Source: Amoebophrya sp. A120
Taxonomy: Eukaryota; Protista; Dinoflagellata
Direction of reading: 5' to 3'
Length of the DNA stretch: 8,197 nucleotides
NCBI GenBank assembly: GCA_905178155.1
Contig: CAJINV010000071.1
Coordinates: 1-8,197, forward strand
Shown in pieces: positions 1 through 8,197 of the stretch (position 1 is its first letter; every line of letters begins with the position of its first letter). Below the pieces are notes generated by a model that was not told where the DNA came from, searched no databases, and worked only from the letters and a program-made list of their open reading frames with translations. The position numbers were made by a program, and so were the translations under genes.

Positions 1-210
1 TTTGGATTCCAAAAAAATCTGTATTGCATGAGTACCAAAGGGAATGTAATTCTTGCTACGCGGAGAGGGCATTTGTCATGCGGAATAGGCATCAAGAAGC
101 TCTCAAAAAATCTGTGCTGCTAGGGCATGCATCACAGACATCAGGGCTCATCCAAAACGTGCATGACAAGTGTCAGAGTCTTCCAGACCCAGACATTTTT
201 ACATTTGATA
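1..210. mobile_element. E1: MITE/introner-like TIR element, left ~52 bp outside the window
   Basis: Ends in the TIR ttccagacccagacatttttacatttgata (181-210). 1-210 is the reverse complement of 4597-4806 (E2) with 4 mismatches, at positions 103, 115, 178 and 204. The right flank ccagg (211-215) is the predicted TSD; its partner is outside the window. Confidence 0.92.
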
Positions 211-643
211 CCAGGAGTCGGGCAACCACCACCAGAATCACGAGACCAACAAATTGCACGGGTCTCAGGGTAGAAGTAGAGGTGGCCGGGGAGGCGGCGC
301 CCTTTATCTTCTTTATCCCGTCCTCGTCTCTACTTGCACTAGAAGCTGGCACCACAAAAGAGCCCCTCGTTGTGGAAACGAGGGTCGAACTCCCCTTAAA
401 CTCCGCATCGTCCTGTTGGGCGATGCCCCCGTCATTGTTCCGACCGGTCGGAGCTAAGGTGCCAACCGCTGGGTAGTACTCCACTTCGCTACCGGGCGTA
501 GCCGCGGACGGCCTTACAGTCGCTGCAGAAATTCGAGCAGGCCGCAAAGTGCTGCTAGTGCTGCTCCCCGGCTTTTTTCCTCTCGCGGAGCCTTGGTCTC
601 CCGCGCCCGCGCGGCGCCTCAGTACATCCTCCCGTTGGCTCAT
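211..643 (-). CDS. Hypothetical protein exon, Ser/Thr/Ala-rich with a hydrophobic segment, interrupted by E1
   Basis: GC-rich part of ORF 173..724(-), from the ATG at 643 (MSQREDVLRR...). It has a possible transmembrane stretch FVGLVILVVVARLL, then reads directly into the TIR (SNVKMSGSG) and stops inside E1. Sequence above 643 is AT-rich. Confidence 0.6.
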
Positions 644-1347
644 GAAAAGTTGTGAATGTAAAGAATCAATCTGAAGATAGACAGTACGGAGCTGATATAA
701 AGGCAAGCTGGAAGACACAACCAAAGATTAATTGGTCCGCAACAAATCTTCCAGGAACAATTACAATTTGCAGCAAATTAGGTAGATATCAAGCATATCA
801 ATTTTCAACACGTCAATACTTCGTAGATTAATACTGTCCATCGTGTATTCACAGATCGCATGAAACGGCACACAAAAAGACCCGAGTCTTTTTTTTTGAA
901 AAGTGATCCATCAAAATTATCTGGTACCGAAGCTACAGCTAGATTTACATCACAAACCGATCGGAGATCTCCTGCAGGCATTTGCATTTGTACTAAACAG
1001 ACCACTTGCACTACTACCGAGAATCTGACAATGCTTGACCGACGACATTTTCTTTGATCTTCAGAGCATTACAGCAATTCCGACCCATTTCTTCATTTTC
1101 GATTAAGTAAACCTCCTATGTTCCAGTATCAACATCAAGGAGATAAGCCCTCTGGCGGAGGCAATAGGACCTACCGAGTTGCCGTTTGCAGAGGCGTGGG
1201 GTCACATTTAACTTGGATGCTATATTCTCAATGCACTTAGTGAGAAGATTCTCAATCTTTATTCTCAGATCGGAAAGAAAGCGTTAATCGGCGGTTCCAT
1301 CCACCGTCGCTAGGGCGTCAGCCGGGCAAGAACTCCGGCACGGAAAT

Positions 1348-1836
1348 TCAGCAGCGACTGGACTGGGATCCACGGGAATCCCGTGGTTGGATCAGCCCCA
1401 TCCAGTCTTGGATCATGATGTCACGCCGCACCTCCTCTTTCAGGTGCCGGCCGGCGTTGCCCGCGACCGCAGGCCTTTTACCGCGGAAGCCGAGGTCGCG
1501 ACTTTTCCGGTTGCCACCACGCCTCCCCAGAACGGCGGCGTCCGACTGAATCAGGCTTGCCGCTTGTTTCAAACTCGACCTGCGAGCCCGTGTGGTCGCT
1601 GGATCTCCGGGACCCGAAAGCGCCCGCGCTCTTGCTGCAGCCCTTTGTTGAGGCGGGAGACCGTCAGAACTGTCATTATGGTCGTGTGCAGCGCCTACTA
1701 CTTCCAAGTGCCTAGGTTCATCTGCATCGGACCGGCGCGGGGTCCAGTGCTGCACACATGTTTTGTTTTTTCTGCTATTTTCAGAAGCCGATCTTGCAGC
1801 TGATCGACCACAAGCATGATTTTGATTTTCAAACAT
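1348..1836 (-). CDS. Probable 3' exon of a multi-exon hypothetical gene (5' boundary uncertain)
   Basis: 162-codon ORF, GC-rich over about 1350-1750, on the same strand as neighbouring exons. No recognisable domain. Confidence 0.45.
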   Translation of the reverse strand: MFENQNHACGRSAARSASENSRKNKTCVQHWTPRRSDADEPRHLEVVGAAHDHNDSSDGLPPQQRAAARARALSGPGDPATTRARRSSLKQAASLIQSDAAVLGRRGGNRKSRDLGFRGKRPAVAGNAGRHLKEEVRRDIMIQDWMGLIQPRDSRGSQSSRC

Positions 1837-1961
1837 CGTACATTCTGAGTACTACCACCATCTTCCTGCACATAGATGCACAACGAACTCAACAACAACG
1901 TTATCGGCGAGGACGATGCCATGCTAAGAAGACTGTGCGCAAAACGAAAAACCAGGGCAAA

Positions 1962-2668
1962 TCATATGAGCAAAAGTGAGTATACAACTTGCTGCTTCCG
2001 TGCGCCGTCGCCGCAATCGCGCGCACCGCCGTCCGGCTGGGCTTGGTGGTTGTGGTTTGGCGGTCGAGCTGCTGGTTTGATGACTGGTGCGTCAATTTCG
2101 TGCCTCGCTCGAATAACGTCATCTTCTTGATCGTCTCCCCGGGCCACGCCAAGCAGGTCGACGCTAACGGGCCGTAGTGGCTTCAGCTGGCTGGCACTGT
2201 AGCTCGCGGACCCCGGCCGCCGGCCCCGCCGAGGCCCCTCCAGCAACGCCACCTTCTGGAGCTGCCGTTCCAGATTCCCGTCAACCCTGTTTTTCATCCG
2301 CGCGGCCGCGGCAGCCGAAAGCGATTGCTCCGTCCACGACCGGGCGGAAGAACTGCAAGCGCTGGATGATGTAGTTGCCGCCCCGTGTTGTACTAGTTGA
2401 GCTGTGTGCAGTAGTTCCGGCTGGTGGTTCTTGCCCTTCTCCCCAACCACCGCCTCTTGTGGCGACGCGGTGTTCCGCCCACTCGTCAATCGCGAAGAGG
2501 ACGAGCCTTGCTTTTCCAGCGACAGCTTGTCGATTGCCGAGCGCAACTGCGACGAAGTCAGCGACCCACTACTCGCAGAATAGTCGGTCGACGCAGCGGA
2601 CACCGCGCTCTTGTTCTGCATCCGCTCCCGCCTGTACCTGTGTTCGTCTCTCGCGTAAAGAGTGCGTT
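1962..2668 (-). CDS. Large exon of a low-complexity (Ser/Ala/Arg-rich) hypothetical protein
   Basis: Part of the 248-codon ORF 1962..2708(-), preceded by a strong acceptor tttaatttcctttcttccgcAG ending at 2669. The exon probably ends near 1990, where the sequence turns T-rich on the sense strand. Confidence 0.6.
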
Positions 2669-2749
2669 CTGCGGAAGAAAGGAAATTAAACTTTGATGCT
2701 GCTACCAATGATCACTGAGGATCGGGACAAGTTTCCGCCCATGACTTAC
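2669..2749 (-). other. Putative canonical GT-AG spliceosomal intron (81 nt)
   Basis: Minus-strand donor cca|GTAAGT at 2749 and polypyrimidine tract plus cAG at 2669. Splicing gives in-frame ...KFREQIRIT-K-RTLYARDEH... Confidence 0.6.
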
Positions 2750-2949
2750 TGGTAATTCTAATTTGCTCGCGAAATTTACTACATAATATGCAAGTCACAT
2801 ATCTTCTACCTTTCCGTGAGATACGCCATCACGCTAGCAGACGGCCCAATGTCGCTTTCCTCAGCACTGGGAAGCCAGGAATACTGGACCCGCGAAAGCT
2901 TCGGCTCAAACAGCGACCTACACAGTATTTTTTCGAAGATCACGACCTC
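2750..2949 (-). CDS. Two small putative exons (2810-2949 and 2750-2778) separated by a possible 31-nt GT-AG intron (2779-2809)
   Basis: Acceptor ctccatcAG at 2950. The frame EVVIFEKILCRSLFEPKLSRVQYSWLPSAEESDIGPSASVMAYLTE joins S-KFREQIRIT if GTAGAAG...ATGTAG is removed. Hand-built model with no transcript evidence. Confidence 0.35.
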
Positions 2950-2964
2950 CTGATGGAGCCAGAG

Positions 2965-3435
2965 TTATGTAAGCACACGGCACAGCAAAAAGAAAGGAAA
3001 AACAGAAAGTCCGCTTCTACGAGCGTCATCAACATCACAATTATCATCATCTTCAGGCTCAGGCAACGCAAGCTCCATAAAATACGGTGGCGGCTTCAAG
3101 TGCGAAGACAATTCGGATGAAGTTCGCTTGATTTTTCGCAGCCCGCTGTCCAGAGCTTGCTCCCAACTTAGCAGGGCGCGCTCTTTTTCCGCCGCATCAC
3201 TTATGCCGTGTCCCGAGACCGGCATTTCCGCAGGAGAAGAATCGCTTGTCAGCGCTGTCAAAAATTCTGCTCCTTCTTCTTGACGCGCGTGGGCTCCACG
3301 CTGACGGCTCGTGACTGATGTCTTCTCTGTCGTATCCACTCTATCGGTGTAGGCTTCTGTGTAGCCGGTTTCCAAGTTCTTCACACTTTCCGCCGAGGGT
3401 TGCTGGCTATGGCAGCCAGGAGAAAACCCGCTCAT
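2965..3435 (-). CDS. Probable exon of a hypothetical protein (boundaries approximate)
   Basis: 156-codon ORF. Its last ~20 codons run through a pyrimidine tract (tttcctttctttttgct) that looks intronic. No recognisable domain. Confidence 0.5.
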   Translation of the reverse strand: MSGFSPGCHSQQPSAESVKNLETGYTEAYTDRVDTTEKTSVTSRQRGAHARQEEGAEFLTALTSDSSPAEMPVSGHGISDAAEKERALLSWEQALDSGLRKIKRTSSELSSHLKPPPYFMELALPEPEDDDNCDVDDARRSGLSVFPFFLLCRVLT

Positions 3436-3800
3436 TGTTTACCATTTTCCAAGAGCAAACTTTTGCACTGGTTTACTCGATGCGCCGCCCAGGAACTGCT
3501 CGGAAGTAGACTTGGATGAAGCGCAATAAACTTGGAGTTGTTCCCCACCAAATGGAAATCTGTGGCCTCGCTATGGTGTAGTGTCGAATGTTGATGTGGA
3601 AGCTCTACAAGCTTGTGAATGAGCAGCTGAAGTCGCATTGTGGACATCCAGAAGCTTGACTCAACTTTTTGCGTCTGTCTCTCCACGCGATCGAATCTAT
3701 CTCGGTGTCGACTCTGCTGTCTACTCAGTTCACAATGACACCCTTTTCTGCTCGCTCTGTTTTTATTACTCTGTTGCCGCAAAGTCAAAAAAAAAATCAA
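3432..3800 (-). CDS. Possible upstream exon or hypothetical ORF
   Basis: 122-codon ORF abutting the next minus-strand ORF, with a possible donor g|GTAAAC near 3442. I could not make the splice phases agree. Confidence 0.25.
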   Translation of the reverse strand: MIFFLTLRQQSNKNRASRKGCHCELSRQQSRHRDRFDRVERQTQKVESSFWMSTMRLQLLIHKLVELPHQHSTLHHSEATDFHLVGNNSKFIALHPSLLPSSSWAAHRVNQCKSLLLENGKQ

Positions 3801-4474
3801 GACGAGTCAACCATCAGATCAGCCAAAGAGTCACCTTTCCACGGAGTCACAAAAAAAAGGACCACGTGTCCTATGATATTGCACACGCATTCTTTTGCTT
3901 AACATGCAGATACATCCACACTGAGAAAGTAACGATTTGAAAATAGCCATTCATCCGAAGTGCGACGAAATGTCTTCAGACCTTCCTAGCTACAAAAGTT
4001 GAGAGATGGCTCGACTCTGTTTTTGGTCCCGAGGATTGGCTTTGTCTATACTGAATAAAAGGATTGCTTCTAGAAGCAGTCATCCTGTATTAATTTGGTG
4101 ACGTACGGCCCCGATCACTACTACTCTATCCAGCCACATCCTATTACCTTATCAAGGCAACGTAAGCATCACATAGAGGTGCAAAGAATAAAACACTGTT
4201 TCATGTATAAAGAGGTGAACTTGGTGAGTAACTACAATAAGAAATCGAGTGTCAAATGTCAGATAAGAATGTCAACATCAGCGGAAAAAAGTGGTCACGA
4301 AACTAAGTTGATTTGGGTTTAGTTAGTGCTGCAAATTGAGTATTTACATTGTGCAATGAATAGAAGGAGGACTCAACAAAACCGCCGAATATCGGGCTAG
4401 TCGCAACCCTTCGGCATTGACTGGCAAATCGTGCGCTCCAGTTCATCCCGCCCCACGTAGGATGGTAGATTCCA

Positions 4475-5249
4475 TTAGCGAACGCCTTCCGGATAGGGAT
4501 ACCCATACATGACAGGTGCTGGTGGCTCGTCGTGGTGTGCTGCTTCCGACTCCGGGGAACTTTCCTGCTGCGAGAAGAGGACGTTCAGCATGGCTTTATC
4601 AACTGTAAAAATGTCTGGGTCTGGAAGATTCTGACACTTGTCATGCACGTTTTGGATGAGCCCTGATGTCTGTGATGCATGCCCTAGCAGCGCAGATTTT
4701 TTGGGAGCTTCTTGATGCCTATTCCGCATGACAAATGCCCTCTCCGCGTAGCAAGAATTACATTCCCTTTGGTACTCATGCAATACAGATTTTTTTGGAA
4801 TCCAAATGCAGCATTACAAGTTGGATTCTTCCAGACCCAGACATTTTTACATTTGATAGGCTTCGCGGTCGTGCCATTCCTCCTCCACCATCTCGTCCTT
4901 CTCGACGCGTTATCAAATGCAAAAATGTCTGGGTCTGGAAGGATGCGAACTTGTGATGCGTGTTGCGGATAATCCAAAAATCTGTGTTGCATGACTTGCA
5001 AAAGGTCCCCATTTCTAGCCATGCCTTGGGGTCATTTCTGATGCAGAATAGGCATCACTAAGGTGCTGCAGAACCTGCGATGCTAGGCCCTGCATTACAG
5101 ACTTGGCGGAGCTTGGAAAAACTGCATGACAAATCTCGGAATTTTCCAGACCCAGACATTTTTACATTTGATACGCGTCCCTCGTGCTCCCGCACGAAGG
5201 CGAGTGGGGAAGGGTATGAAAGTGGACAGATCCCTCCAATCCCTTGCAT
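4475..5249 (-). CDS. Hypothetical protein or terminal exons, interrupted by E3 and E2; join(5174-5249, 4859-4905, 4475-4591)
   Basis: Removing E3+TSD (268 nt) and E2+TSD (267 nt) gives 79 aa: MQGIGGICPLSYPSPLAFVREHEGRV-EKDEMVEEEWHDREA-MLNVLFSQQESSPESEAAHHDEPPAPVMYGYPYPEGVR*. The true start is uncertain because an AG|GTGAGT donor lies at 5274(-). Other frames are also open over this short stretch. Confidence 0.5.
4597..4858. mobile_element. E2: 262-bp MITE/introner-like element, interior inverted relative to E1, E3, E4 and E5
   Basis: TIRs at 4597-4626 (one A>C change at 4603) and 4829-4858. TSD ggctt at 4592-4596 and 4859-4863. Confidence 0.95.
4911..5173. mobile_element. E3: 263-bp MITE/introner-like element
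   Basis: TIRs at 4911-4940 and 5144-5173. TSD cgcgt at 4906-4910 and 5174-5178. Confidence 0.95.
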
Positions 5250-5502
5250 GATAATTTTGGGAAAATATACTCACCTATGCAAAGATAGCTTTTGCACCTG
5301 CACGACAAAGGAGCACGTGCACGATTCAGGTTTTATTCAGATGAATGTATTTCGTCCGGTCGAGACAGTCCGATAGATGCCCGAAGGCCCATTATCTTCT
5401 AAAGTTCGTCATGCAATTACTGCCAAAAACCTAAGATAAGACGTATTTGACCTTTGGGTTCTTTCACTGACGAGGGGAACAAAGGAAACAAGCAGTCCAC
5501 TA

Positions 5503-8195
5503 TCATAAAAGAGGCTCTTCCACCAAAAACGGGTGGTCCGGGGGCACTTCGGTTCTTGTCCACTTCCCGAGCCAGCCCGAAGCGATTTTACCTGCCGTGA
5601 TTTTCTGGACATCCAGGTACTGAATCGGTTGCATGACCTCCCATAACCGATTCTGCTCCTCGCTTTCCCGTTGACACTCCTCCACACTTTTGTACCGTGT
5701 CGACTGCTATCAAATGTAAAAATGTCTGGGTCTGGAAGAGTGCATGCTTGTCATGCTTGTCTGGCATGACTCTCAAATCTGTCACGCACGTTACCCAAGA
5801 GCGCCACTTTTCTGTCATTCAGAAACGCAGTTTGTCATGCAGAATAGGCAACACCTAGAAGCTCAGAAACTTGTCATGCTGAGCCAGCACTTGTGGCCTC
5901 CTCATGATACGCCACCCAGCATCACAAGTTTCCAGACCCAGACATTTTTGCATTTGATAACTGCAGGGGTGCGTTCAAAGCTTCAAAGTTTTCTGAGGAA
6001 CCCGCGACGAGGTCCACCACGTCGAGTTTCCAGCGAATCCGTACAAAATCGCAGTATTTCCTCGTGCGCCCCTTTTCGTAGTTCTGCCAGGCACCCACCG
6101 GGTAGAACTTCTCGGTGGGACGAGAGTAGGGCTGAATGCAGGCAAGCGTTATCCCGGTGGCGAGACCGAAGGAAGGCGATTTCTGCTCGTACAGGAAGCG
6201 TCCGGGGGAGAGGTCGTGTACTTGGAGCACATAGCTTCCCACGGGACCGCGGACATCATCTCTGGCAAACGGACGCAAGGCAATGACGCGCAACGAGGCC
6301 AGGTCGTATCAAATGTAAAAATGTCTGGGTCTGGAAGAATGCAACTTGTGATGCTGCGTCTGCATTATCCAAAAATCTGTATTGCATGAACAGCAAAAGA
6401 GGTCTGATTTTGGCCACGGCGAGAGGGGATTTCTCATGCGGCATAGGCATCAGAAAGCCCTCACAAGATCTGTGATGGTAGGGCATGCATCGCAGACATC
6501 AGGAGTCATGCAAAATGTGCATGACAAACCTTGCATCCTTCCAGACCCAGACATTTTTGCATTTGATAGGTCGACCGTGTTCGCCAGATTCCGAAGTTGC
6601 TTTTCGAGCACACCAGGTTGCTCCTGCTTCTGCTCGTCATCTTCATTTTTACCGATCGCGGGGCTAAATGGACGCCCGTCCTCCACGGAGTTTTCGTCCT
6701 CACCCTCATTTATTCCGGAGCTTGATCCTCCGGGTCGGCGAAGGCCTTGCACCCTGCCAGCGGCATTCGCTGCCCAGTCCGGCAGGAGGTTCAACTTGAA
6801 GTGCTTCAGCCCAACTCGCACAGGAATCTTCAGCACTGGCGGAACACTGCGAATCACGCTGTTCTCGACACTGGGAACCAGTTCGAACCCCGCGGAAACG
6901 GAGGCGGGATTCCTTTTCGTTCGGTCGACTGACGGCTCGAACAGGCGCGCAAGTTGGAACATGCGCGGCTGGTGCAGGGCGGTGAACACGAATTGCGAAA
7001 ACTCTCTTGTTGCGCACTTCGCAAGCTTTTCGTCCGGCCCAATCAACAACATCACAAGCGGAAAAAGCTTTGCCGGGACATTCAGAAAGTGCGCCCAGTC
7101 CGGGGTCACTTGCGCGAGGTTGGTATTTGCTCCCAGTAGAGGACCCTGCCGAATTCTGGTGTTCTGCTGCTTTTTCACGTCGATCGCGCCACGATATACC
7201 GCAACGAGGTACTCCTTGTACAACTGACGCGCGATATCTTCCGCACTGGACTCTTTCATTAATTCAATCTGTTCCGCGGAATGCGCCTTGTGGACCGCCA
7301 GCACGCCCGCGCCGTCTGGAATTCGCGAAGACGATGATGTCTGGCTCAGCCGCCTCGCGGCCGGCCAAAAGTCGGGATCCACTTTGCCCATCTTCGCTTT
7401 AGCATCCTCCAGCCCTTTGTCCAAGCGATTCAAATCCAGGGTTCCTGCTCCGAGGGTGTGAGCAGCGCGGAGCTTTTGCAAACGTTCGGAGCTCTCTGCG
7501 GTGATCCCAGCCGAGTCTCGCAGGGAGGTGAGGTAGGATGTCACTGCTTTGTCCTTGACGCGACGGAGACGGACGGCACGGCCCACCGCACGCAACACCA
7601 CGGAATGGTCATTGTCCGAGTCGCATATCCTTCCCGCGGCGGTCAGCTCGGCGACCAGAAACAAACCGGCATCCCAGACTTCGCCCACAGAGGTCGCGTT
7701 CCACCACGTGTTGGAGATTTGCGCGGAGAACACGTCCGCGAAATTCACAACGGCCTGCCTGTGTAAATCTTGATACATAGCTTGCAAGACGGTTAGGGCG
7801 GACCGGATGGTCTTTGCCAGCGCGTCCCGGGCGGGGCACCTGTCCCCGTGCACGTTCACGTCGCAGGAAGCTGCAATCGCTTGCAATGATCGCCAGTCCG
7901 CGGTCTCATGCAACGTCTCGAGAAGAGCTTTCGTGCGCCGGAGCGCTCGCAGCTGGGCTCGAAAATCCCGGTGGAGAAAGAATGTGCCCGGCACATCCAC
8001 GAGGGCGTGCGCAGAGAGCAGGCGAACGTTGCGGCAGCTGTAGGCATCCTTCAACCCGTTTCTACCCAAGTCGAAGCACGTCCAGTGTTTCGGCGTGCAC
8101 GAGAGGTCGGCCCGGTACTGGCAGAACACCTCGGTTTGTGCATTTTTCACCAAGCCGCAGGAGCCCAATGCTGCTTTGGCTACTGCTTTGGACGG
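5503..8195 (-). CDS. Large hypothetical protein (at least 722 aa, 5' end outside the window), interrupted by E5 and E4; join(6569->8195, 5960-6301, 5503-5702)
   Basis: The frame of ORF 6450..8168 is open to the window edge. Removing E5+TSD (267 nt) gives ...NLANTVD-L-ASLRVIALRPF... and removing E4+TSD (257 nt) gives ...LNAPLQ-S-TRYKSVEECQRE...EEPLL* (stop at 5503-5505). This fuses three separately called ORFs. No domain recognised. Confidence 0.8.
5708..5959. mobile_element. E4: 252-bp MITE/introner-like element (most divergent interior by eye)
   Basis: TIRs at 5708-5737 and 5930-5959. TSD actgc at 5703-5707 and 5960-5964. Confidence 0.95.
6307..6568. mobile_element. E5: 262-bp MITE/introner-like element
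   Basis: TIRs at 6307-6336 and 6539-6568. TSD ggtcg at 6302-6306 and 6569-6573. Confidence 0.95.
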
Positions 8196-8197
8196 CG

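Follow-up and report, generated by a model that had tools for sequence, protein, structure and literature searches.

What are the short repeated elements that interrupt the genes of a contig of the dinoflagellate Amoebophrya sp. A120, and what becomes of them when those genes are transcribed? The stretch analysed (GenBank assembly GCA_905178155.1, contig CAJINV010000071.1, positions 1 to 8,197 of the forward strand) is referred to as the window and comprises 8,197 nucleotides (nt). An initial annotation, made without database searches, had described in it a family of elements bounded by a 30-base terminal inverted repeat (TIR) and a target-site duplication (TSD) of 5 base pairs (bp), and had left the family unassigned to any known transposon superfamily. 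When contigs from several sequencing runs were aligned to the window, the elements were found to be introns, each leaving the transcript contigs together with one copy of its TSD. They are very probably introner elements of the type already published for A120, similar to miniature inverted-repeat transposable elements (MITEs), which would be inserted by a transposase or integrase acting in trans and removed under the guidance of a hairpin.

The window was searched for the 30-base TIR, written with Y at position 10, allowing up to 3 mismatches, and nine matches were obtained (none in 200 shuffles). Eight of them had no mismatch and the remaining one, at 4597, carried the single change A7>C, which agrees with the nine copies, variable in T or C at position 10 and with one singleton change, described in the initial annotation. 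The matches delimit four complete elements of 252-263 bp, each flanked by a perfect 5-bp TSD different from the others and rich in G and C, and a fifth copy cut by the window start, and so bear out the five copies in 6.6 kb that had been counted before. All five copies are situated in minus-strand genes, and the G+C content of the elements is 0.42-0.46 against 0.52 for the window. The TIR reads TAT, then CAAATGY, then AAAAA, and the direct repeats previously noted in it can be read directly from the 30-mer (AAATGT at positions 5-10 and 13-18, GTCTGG at positions 17-22 and 23-28). The truncated copy (1-210) and the corresponding part of another (4597-4806), 4.4 kb apart and in inverted orientation, are 98% alike, compared with a typical value of about 62% for the interiors of the family; so high a likeness points to a recent local hop or to gene conversion. 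The Rfam search of the window gave no match.

Table 1. Coordinates of the features discussed; positions refer to the window, except for the last three lines, which refer to loci of the related contigs.
Feature	Position	Strand	Remarks
Introner element, cut by window start	1..210	-	right-hand TIR 181-210
Introner element, 262 bp	4597..4858	-	TSD ggctt (4592-4596, 4859-4863)
Introner element, 263 bp	4911..5173	-	TSD cgcgt (4906-4910, 5174-5178)
Introner element, different family, 293 bp, TAT...ATA	5215..5507	-	13-nt inverted repeat TATGAWAGTGGAC; intron removed 5210-5507
Introner element, 252 bp	5708..5959	-	TSD actgc (5703-5707, 5960-5964)
Introner element, 262 bp	6307..6568	-	TSD ggtcg (6302-6306, 6569-6573)
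TIR match	181-210	-	
TIR match	from 4597	+	
TIR match	4829-4858	-	
TIR match	from 4911	+	
TIR match	5144-5173	-	
TIR match	from 5708	+	
TIR match	5930-5959	-	
TIR match	from 6307	+	
TIR match	6539-6568	-	
Joint	4591>4859		skips 267 nt; X3 and X4; depth 0 in X1, X7, X8
Joint	4904>5173		skips 268 nt; X3 and X4; depth 0 in X1, X7, X8
Joint	5209>5508		skips 298 nt; X3
Joint	5702>5960		skips 257 nt; X3; X4 record 12 pieces 5508-5702, 5960-6300
Joint	6300>6568		skips 267 nt; X3; X4 record 12 pieces 5960-6300, 6568-8197
Flank motif, 4597 copy	4874..4876	-	T-N-G
Flank motif, 4911 copy	4893..4895	+	T-C-G
Flank motif, 5708 copy	5690..5692	+	T-T-G
Flank motif, 6307 copy	6584..6586	-	T-N-G
Host gene	3958..8197	-	5' end beyond window; exons joined as in transcript contigs
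Neighbouring gene	1143..3613	-	GT-AG introns 1750-1985, 2635-2806, 2916-3083; 503-codon open reading frame when spliced
Further TAT...ATA element	L001 3678-3950		
Further TAT...ATA element	L002 3177-3405		
Further TAT...ATA element	L016 2486-2792		

Contigs of the sequencing runs X3 and X4 and of the DNA runs X1, X7 and X8 were aligned to the window. A single contig of X3 (depth 10.5) contained five joints, at which 267, 268, 298, 257 and 267 nt were skipped (Table 1); four of the skips corresponded to a 30-mer element plus 5 nt, with 5-6 ambiguous bases per joint that matched the TSD. The first two joints of the table were recovered in X4 at a depth of 124.5. The match of X3 contig record 1 begins with a loose end at 211 and continues into sequence outside the window. 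As an internal control, contigs of X3 and X4 also lacked the three ordinary GT-AG introns (CT..AC on the plus strand) of the neighbouring gene, through which the DNA-run contig X1 record 1 reads, and X3 and X4 were therefore taken as spliced RNA. One low-depth contig of X4 (record 11, 5182-5537) retains the intron 5210-5507 and represents either unspliced precursor messenger RNA (pre-mRNA) or a trace of DNA.

The ends of these introns carry no splice signal of a known class: when the possible cut registers of the five introns were listed, none of the 29 gave GT-AG, GC-AG or AT-AC ends. Removal is independent of element orientation, the copy at 4597-4858 being inverted relative to those at 4911-5173 and 6307-6568 and all three being removed from the same transcript. 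The intron RNA was computed to form a terminal stem of about 35 bp with the first and last nucleotides of the element at its base, and for the two introns 6307-6568 (-127 kcal/mol, z -11.25) and 4597-4858 (-108.2 kcal/mol, z -8.53) no fold as good was obtained from any of 200 shuffles.

The exact position of the cuts could be narrowed down with the help of the 298-nt intron 5210-5507, which contains no copy of the 30-mer; it starts with TATGATAGTGGAC and ends with GTCCACTTTCATA followed by five more bases. Its 293-bp TAT...ATA element likewise leaves the RNA as element plus 5 nt. The flank repeat of this element has decayed (TCTTT and CCCTT on the minus strand, 3 of 5 positions matching), and because the two copies have diverged only 2 bases at the joint are ambiguous. 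In the mRNA the 5' flank copy is still present, and three or more bases at the start of the 3' copy are gone. Assuming a common rule for the five introns, the 5' cut would be made 0-2 nt before the base of the stem and the 3' cut correspondingly 5-3 nt after it.

These properties raise the question of which machinery removes the elements. Cleavage by a structure-specific endonuclease that recognises the long stem, followed by joining by an RNA ligase, as for introns of transfer RNA (tRNA) or in an IRE1-type reaction, would dispense with the spliceosome altogether; it would account for boundaries neither of which can be defined by sequence, for removal in both orientations and for cut positions apparently set by their distance from the stem base. 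A bulge-helix-bulge or similar motif was not seen, though no search was aimed at one, and the reported state of Amoebophrya splicing, in which more than 60% of introns are non-canonical, nearly all spliceosomal proteins are present and U1 small nuclear RNA was not detected (Farhat et al. 2021, PMC7789003), favours an altered spliceosome. We therefore regard an endonuclease and ligase as unlikely, and the U1-less spliceosome reported for the genus as the most likely remover.

It was also considered that the elements might be eliminated from the DNA of the transcribed nuclei, in the manner of the internal eliminated sequences of ciliates, so that the RNA would simply mirror the DNA. Loss of an element together with one TSD copy is what precise excision of a transposon leaves, and the boundaries carry no splice signals. 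The DNA runs speak against it, since the joined forms 4591>4859 and 4904>5173 have a depth of 0 in all three and every border between element and flank is bridged by DNA-run contigs (X1 records 1, 2, 3, 7 and 8), the DNA coverage of the locus in X1 being about 25x. Moreover, the X4 contig mentioned above keeps intron 5210-5507 as a pre-mRNA would, and the introner elements (IEs) of Amoebophrya are treated by Farhat et al. (PMC7789003) as introns supported by RNA sequencing. Elimination at the DNA level is accordingly held to be very improbable.

For a wider view of the family, public contigs of a metagenome collection were searched with a 22-base part of the TIR, which gave at least 150 stretches, all in contigs named JACKZZ01...; the set of related loci numbered 147 (487 kb), in which 132 unique elements could be paired, and 125 of these measured 240-330 bp. 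The unique DNA of the window is not present among the 147 loci, and a scan of viral contigs with the 22-mer gave no match. In X1, 11,109 contigs matched the window at 95% or more, nearly all of them on the elements, and the summed contig depth of the DNA runs on the elements was thousands of times that on unique DNA; contig depth is not a copy number, and the figure therefore shows only that copies are very many. Counting paired copies and their TSDs, as the initial annotation had proposed, gave a perfect match of 5 bp between the flanks in 107 of the 125 short copies and 0-1 matches for lengths of 3, 4, 6 and 7, with no preference for any base in the TSD (at most 0.06 bit per position). So exact a 5-bp duplication argues for integration into DNA through a staggered cut, against the published doubt about transposase-mediated movement.

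The related loci also allowed removal to be examined at the level of reading frames. Among 85 decidable sites (21 others were too short and 4 tied), removal of the element plus 5 nt gave the longest frame across the junction at 47, and removal of plus 4 or plus 6 nt at 19 each (p 2.6e-5). This result supersedes an earlier version with 240-nt flanks that hardly discriminated (26-27 versus 16-18 sites). The orientation of the element relative to the inferred coding strand was 19 to 21. A single locus, L053, provides an example in a known gene, where a 972-bp member of the family (3995-4966) splits the coding sequence of the conserved RPB1: the upstream piece aligns to residues 830-1068 of yeast Rpb1 and, with the unit and 5 nt taken out, the next 20 residues align to residues 1070-1089, the frame being broken if plus 4 or plus 6 nt are removed instead. 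That member holds a nested insert of about 690 bp, so that its removal would need an intron of 977 nt, and a further break in the RPB1 sequence lies 20 codons after the element.

With these results the notion of ordinary MITE insertions that stay in the RNA, leaving genes disrupted or lying in untranslated DNA, can hardly be upheld. A classic MITE is indeed small, present in very many copies and equipped with TIRs and a TSD, but here each element is missing, together with 5 nt, from the transcript contigs, which thereby acquire one long open frame; RPB1 is colinear only if the unit and 5 nt are taken out, and the frame test gave a positive result for the family as a whole. What stands of the initial annotation is a MITE-like, noncoding family with 5-bp TSDs and without an assigned superfamily; its picture of plain transposon insertions does not hold, since the transcript contigs show introns.

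Variation of the TIR among the 110 copies with a perfect TSD was confined to positions 4, 5, 7, 10 and 14-15, with no more than 3 changes in 110 per arm at positions 16-28. At position 7, 57 of the 110 copies have different bases in their two arms. The partner arm that had not been selected by the query showed at most 5 mismatches of 29 in 94 of 107 cases, compared with the approximately 62% likeness of element interiors. Since matching changes in the two arms are almost absent, the conservation of the TIR could be owed to the demands of mobilisation just as well as to those of an RNA stem. Conserved blocks inside the element (consensus positions 39-48, 77-83, 127-133, 178-185 and 199-222) all contain CATGC/GCATG, which reads the same on both strands, and could be binding sites usable in either orientation. 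In a blind scan, 77 other TAT...ATA elements were recovered, 110-630 bp in length and each with a perfect 5-bp TSD (loci L001-L077; examples in Table 1), among which end-sequence families with TATCCTGAGTAAAA, TATCGCAAGAAAAA, TATCCAAGAAAAAA, TATGACAGTGCACA, TATGGCGTTCTCAA, TATGGAAGCGTCAG and TATCAAAAGGAAAA were distinguished; judged by these ends, the 77 look like a superfamily with common TAT termini and a 5-bp stagger.

A second regularity was found outside the elements. Counted from the first TSD base, the flanks have T at position -13 with G at -11 or, in mirror image, C at +15 with A at +17. Of the 110 TSD-perfect copies, 81 have this T-N-G motif on one side only and 2 have it on both sides, 27 being without it; the background is 6.1% per side. 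When the flanks were oriented by it, the motif extended to A-A-A-T-Y-G-T at -16 to -10. In a profile scan, 49 of 54 scored sites had the motif at the fixed offset, and a profile score above 6 bits was reached at 37% of sites compared with 4.9% of random positions. The side that carries the motif is associated neither with the orientation of the element (20/20 and 23/21), nor with the coding strand (20 versus 13, p 0.30), nor with the end variants of the TIR; it therefore looks like a choice made at the DNA level by an asymmetric reader. In those 64 of the blind-scan elements that are unlike the 30-mer family, T at -13 occurred in 30 and A at +17 in 32, the next base being a purine. Beside the 293-bp element of the window, T-G-G is found at -13..-11 on the 5' (sense) side. 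We know of no one-sided flank motif of this sort in the transposon groups that make 5-bp TSDs. Neither the motif nor the cut register was found in the literature searched, which included the available sections of Farhat et al. 2021 and Gozashti et al. 2025.

That the family does not consist of DNA transposons, and was spread by reverse splicing into RNA with subsequent reverse transcription, would suit the report of Farhat et al. (PMC7789003), who found no transposase in A120 and doubted mobilisation by one, yet it is scarcely credible in view of the exact 5-bp duplications at 107 of 125 copies, the lack of orientation bias to the coding strand (19:21) and a flank motif independent of that strand (20 versus 13). 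Because of the 5-bp TSDs, the absence of strand bias and the strand-independent motif, insertion into DNA is favoured over insertion into transcripts.

The initial annotation had taken the elements for a novel kind and had proposed a comparison with published introner families. In Amoebophrya A25 and A120, non-canonical introns with inverted repeats (IRs) of 8-20 nt, direct repeats (DRs) of 3-5 nt and a hairpin are described by Farhat et al. (2021, PMC7789003), with 29,850 repeated introns in A120 and IEs amounting to 17% of the assembly. The A120 IR motif is given there as TAT, seven less-conserved nt and then at least three A's; the window TIR fits this description, and the kind of element is therefore already known. 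The elements studied here share with the A120 IEs of that report the RNA support, the non-canonical ends (no canonical register among 29), an IR that pairs both intron ends into a hairpin, a DR within 3-5 nt (5 nt in 4 of 4 window copies and 107 of 125 related ones), the absence of internal coding capacity and a very high copy number. They differ in an IR of 30-37 nt in place of the printed 8-20 nt and in a DR of exactly 5 nt that abuts the IR, the commonest A120 DR lying four nt from the IR on the upstream side and within two nt of it on the downstream side. Unlike in the present analysis, no family-specific IR, target motif or cut register is reported in the available part of PMC7789003.

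A closer relative may be listed among the 58 introner families given for A120 by Gozashti et al. (2025, PMC12130899). Their fam12 has 331 intron-generating copies of 252-260 bp with a terminal TIR of 33, is classed as 'TIR DNA / Unknown' and has mostly non-canonical splice sites (gt in 92 of 331, about the share expected if G precedes TAT by chance), and their fam100 is 256-261 bp long with a TIR of 30. Size and TIR length are like those of the window family, a lead obtained by comparing table rows; a TSD is absent from the table for fam12 and 4 nt long for fam100, as against 5 bp here (PMC12130899). The TIR strings of the window are absent from the searchable supplement text of PMC7789003 and PMC12130899; Farhat figures S19-S25 with the family table and the consensus library of Gozashti et al., which lay outside that search, may contain the family. 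In the same 2025 report, A120 introners with TIRs and open reading frames (ORFs) resembling Copia/Gypsy integrases are described, family 38 being Ginger-like and the fam12 row showing an 'LTR/Gypsy' peptide match (PMC12130899), and an integrase-type enzyme is for this reason a candidate for the inserting activity.

Outside Amoebophrya, the introners of Micromonas, Aureococcus and Symbiodinium are of the MITE type and become introns on insertion (Gozashti et al. 2022, PMC9860276). As in the window, they are non-autonomous elements with TIRs and TSDs, and the element is spliced out with one TSD so that the length of the mRNA is unchanged; unlike the window copies, for which no register has canonical ends, they bring one canonical splice site with them and recruit the second from the TSD, giving GT/GY-AG ends (PMC9860276). 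A further difference is that the window element is removed in either orientation. MITE-type introners were reportedly dealt with by Huff et al. in 2016. Among transposons, 5-bp duplications are made by Transib, Tn7, Mu, Tn3 and by integrases of the retroviral or Ty1/copia type, including Ginger-like elements, and the termini are CAC in Transib, TG in Tn7 and Mu, and GGGG in Tn3. The window family is like Transib, Tn7, Mu and Tn3 in the 5-bp staggered cut of the target and unlike them in its TAT...ATA termini (TATC/TATG). With its TIRs, TSD of fixed length, small size, many copies and want of an ORF it agrees with the usual description of MITEs.

An autonomous partner was sought in the window and in the 487 kb of related contigs. 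None of the 14 window ORFs contained a transposase domain, in agreement with the initial annotation, and their sole match, HiaBD2, lay below its cut-off. The kb-sized copies enclosing an ORF that had been proposed as a source of the enzyme did not turn up in the related contigs: the longer TSD-perfect pairs (324-1031 bp) proved to be family members with nested inserts or two neighbouring copies, and no autonomous partner was found among the long TAT...ATA pairs. A 6197-bp TAT...ATA pair of locus L051 was rejected, its 11 matching end bases being expected about 0.15 times by chance and its ORFs being without a Pfam match.

Taken together, the data are best explained by a two-step scheme. In the first step, a target would be cut with a 5-bp stagger and joined to the TAT...ATA ends, which would create the duplication, at a site picked 11-16 nt from an A-A-A-T-Y-G-T motif lying on one side only. 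The best lead to the inserting enzyme would be the integrase-like TIR elements reported for A120. In the second step, the TIR stem in the transcript would draw the exon ends together, and a splicing machinery blind to GU/AG would make its 5' cut at the stem base or at most 2 nt ahead of it, and its 3' cut 3-5 nt past it. With element and 5 nt cut out, the mRNA would regain the sequence that it had before insertion. Because the element encodes no protein, the inserting and the removing enzymes would both act in trans.

A number of points weigh against this scheme. That X3 and X4 are RNA is itself a guess, and X4 is not independent of X3, because both derive from one sample of one study, so that the evidence for splicing is a single data set. 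A depth of 0 in the DNA runs applies to two of the five joined forms, among the joint rows listed. Raw RNA runs bearing the same species label (X9, X10 and X11) placed 3, 3 and 0 reads on the window, all partial, and provided no test. These runs share the label of the DNA holder yet place almost no reads at 95% likeness, and the label probably covers divergent strains. The cut register comes from one intron. In the related contigs, 18 of the 125 short copies lack a perfect TSD, the frame test fails at 38 of the 85 sites and the flank motif is missing in 27 of 110 copies. At positions 4, 5, 7 and 15 each TIR arm changes independently of the other, and covariation therefore lends no support to selection on the stem. 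Neither a transposase nor an autonomous copy is present in the window, and none was found in 120 of the 159 ORFs of at least 200 amino acids (aa) in the 487 kb of related contigs; Farhat et al. (2021, PMC7789003) argue that A120 is without transposases and doubt mobilisation by them. Finally, identity with a family already in print is likely, as far as motif description, size and TIR figures allow the two to be compared.

The host gene of the four complete elements, when spliced, forms an open frame of 787 codons that ends with a TAA stop and is followed by a 3' untranslated region of about 520 nt; deletion of two elements with one flank repeat each is sufficient to fuse three ORFs into a frame of 722 codons. 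For its 540-aa exon, 7993 candidates were scored and none qualified as a homologue at E<=0.001, and neither its product nor that of the neighbouring gene (1143-3613) matched a Pfam family. All genes of the window lie on one strand, and this arrangement, together with proteins lacking homologues, fits the unidirectional gene clusters and rapid protein evolution reported for Amoebophrya (PMC7789003).

A bolder reading, which we consider decidedly doubtful, is that one asymmetric machine inserts all TAT-ended introner families of this genome by cutting 11 and 16 nt from the motif, in the way of a type IIS enzyme and with a 5-nt stagger, and that an RNA ruler removes them by cutting at the hairpin base and 5 nt beyond. 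If this were true, the RNA step would mirror the stagger of integration, and both steps might share an element-derived or domesticated enzyme in a non-spliceosomal 'RNA excision'. Hairpin-bounded introns without splice signals are among the oddest features of Amoebophrya. To these the window adds no new kind of element; the one-sided motif, which by its fixed distance points to an asymmetric reader of the target, and the cut register are modest new starting points for finding out what inserts the elements and what removes them.

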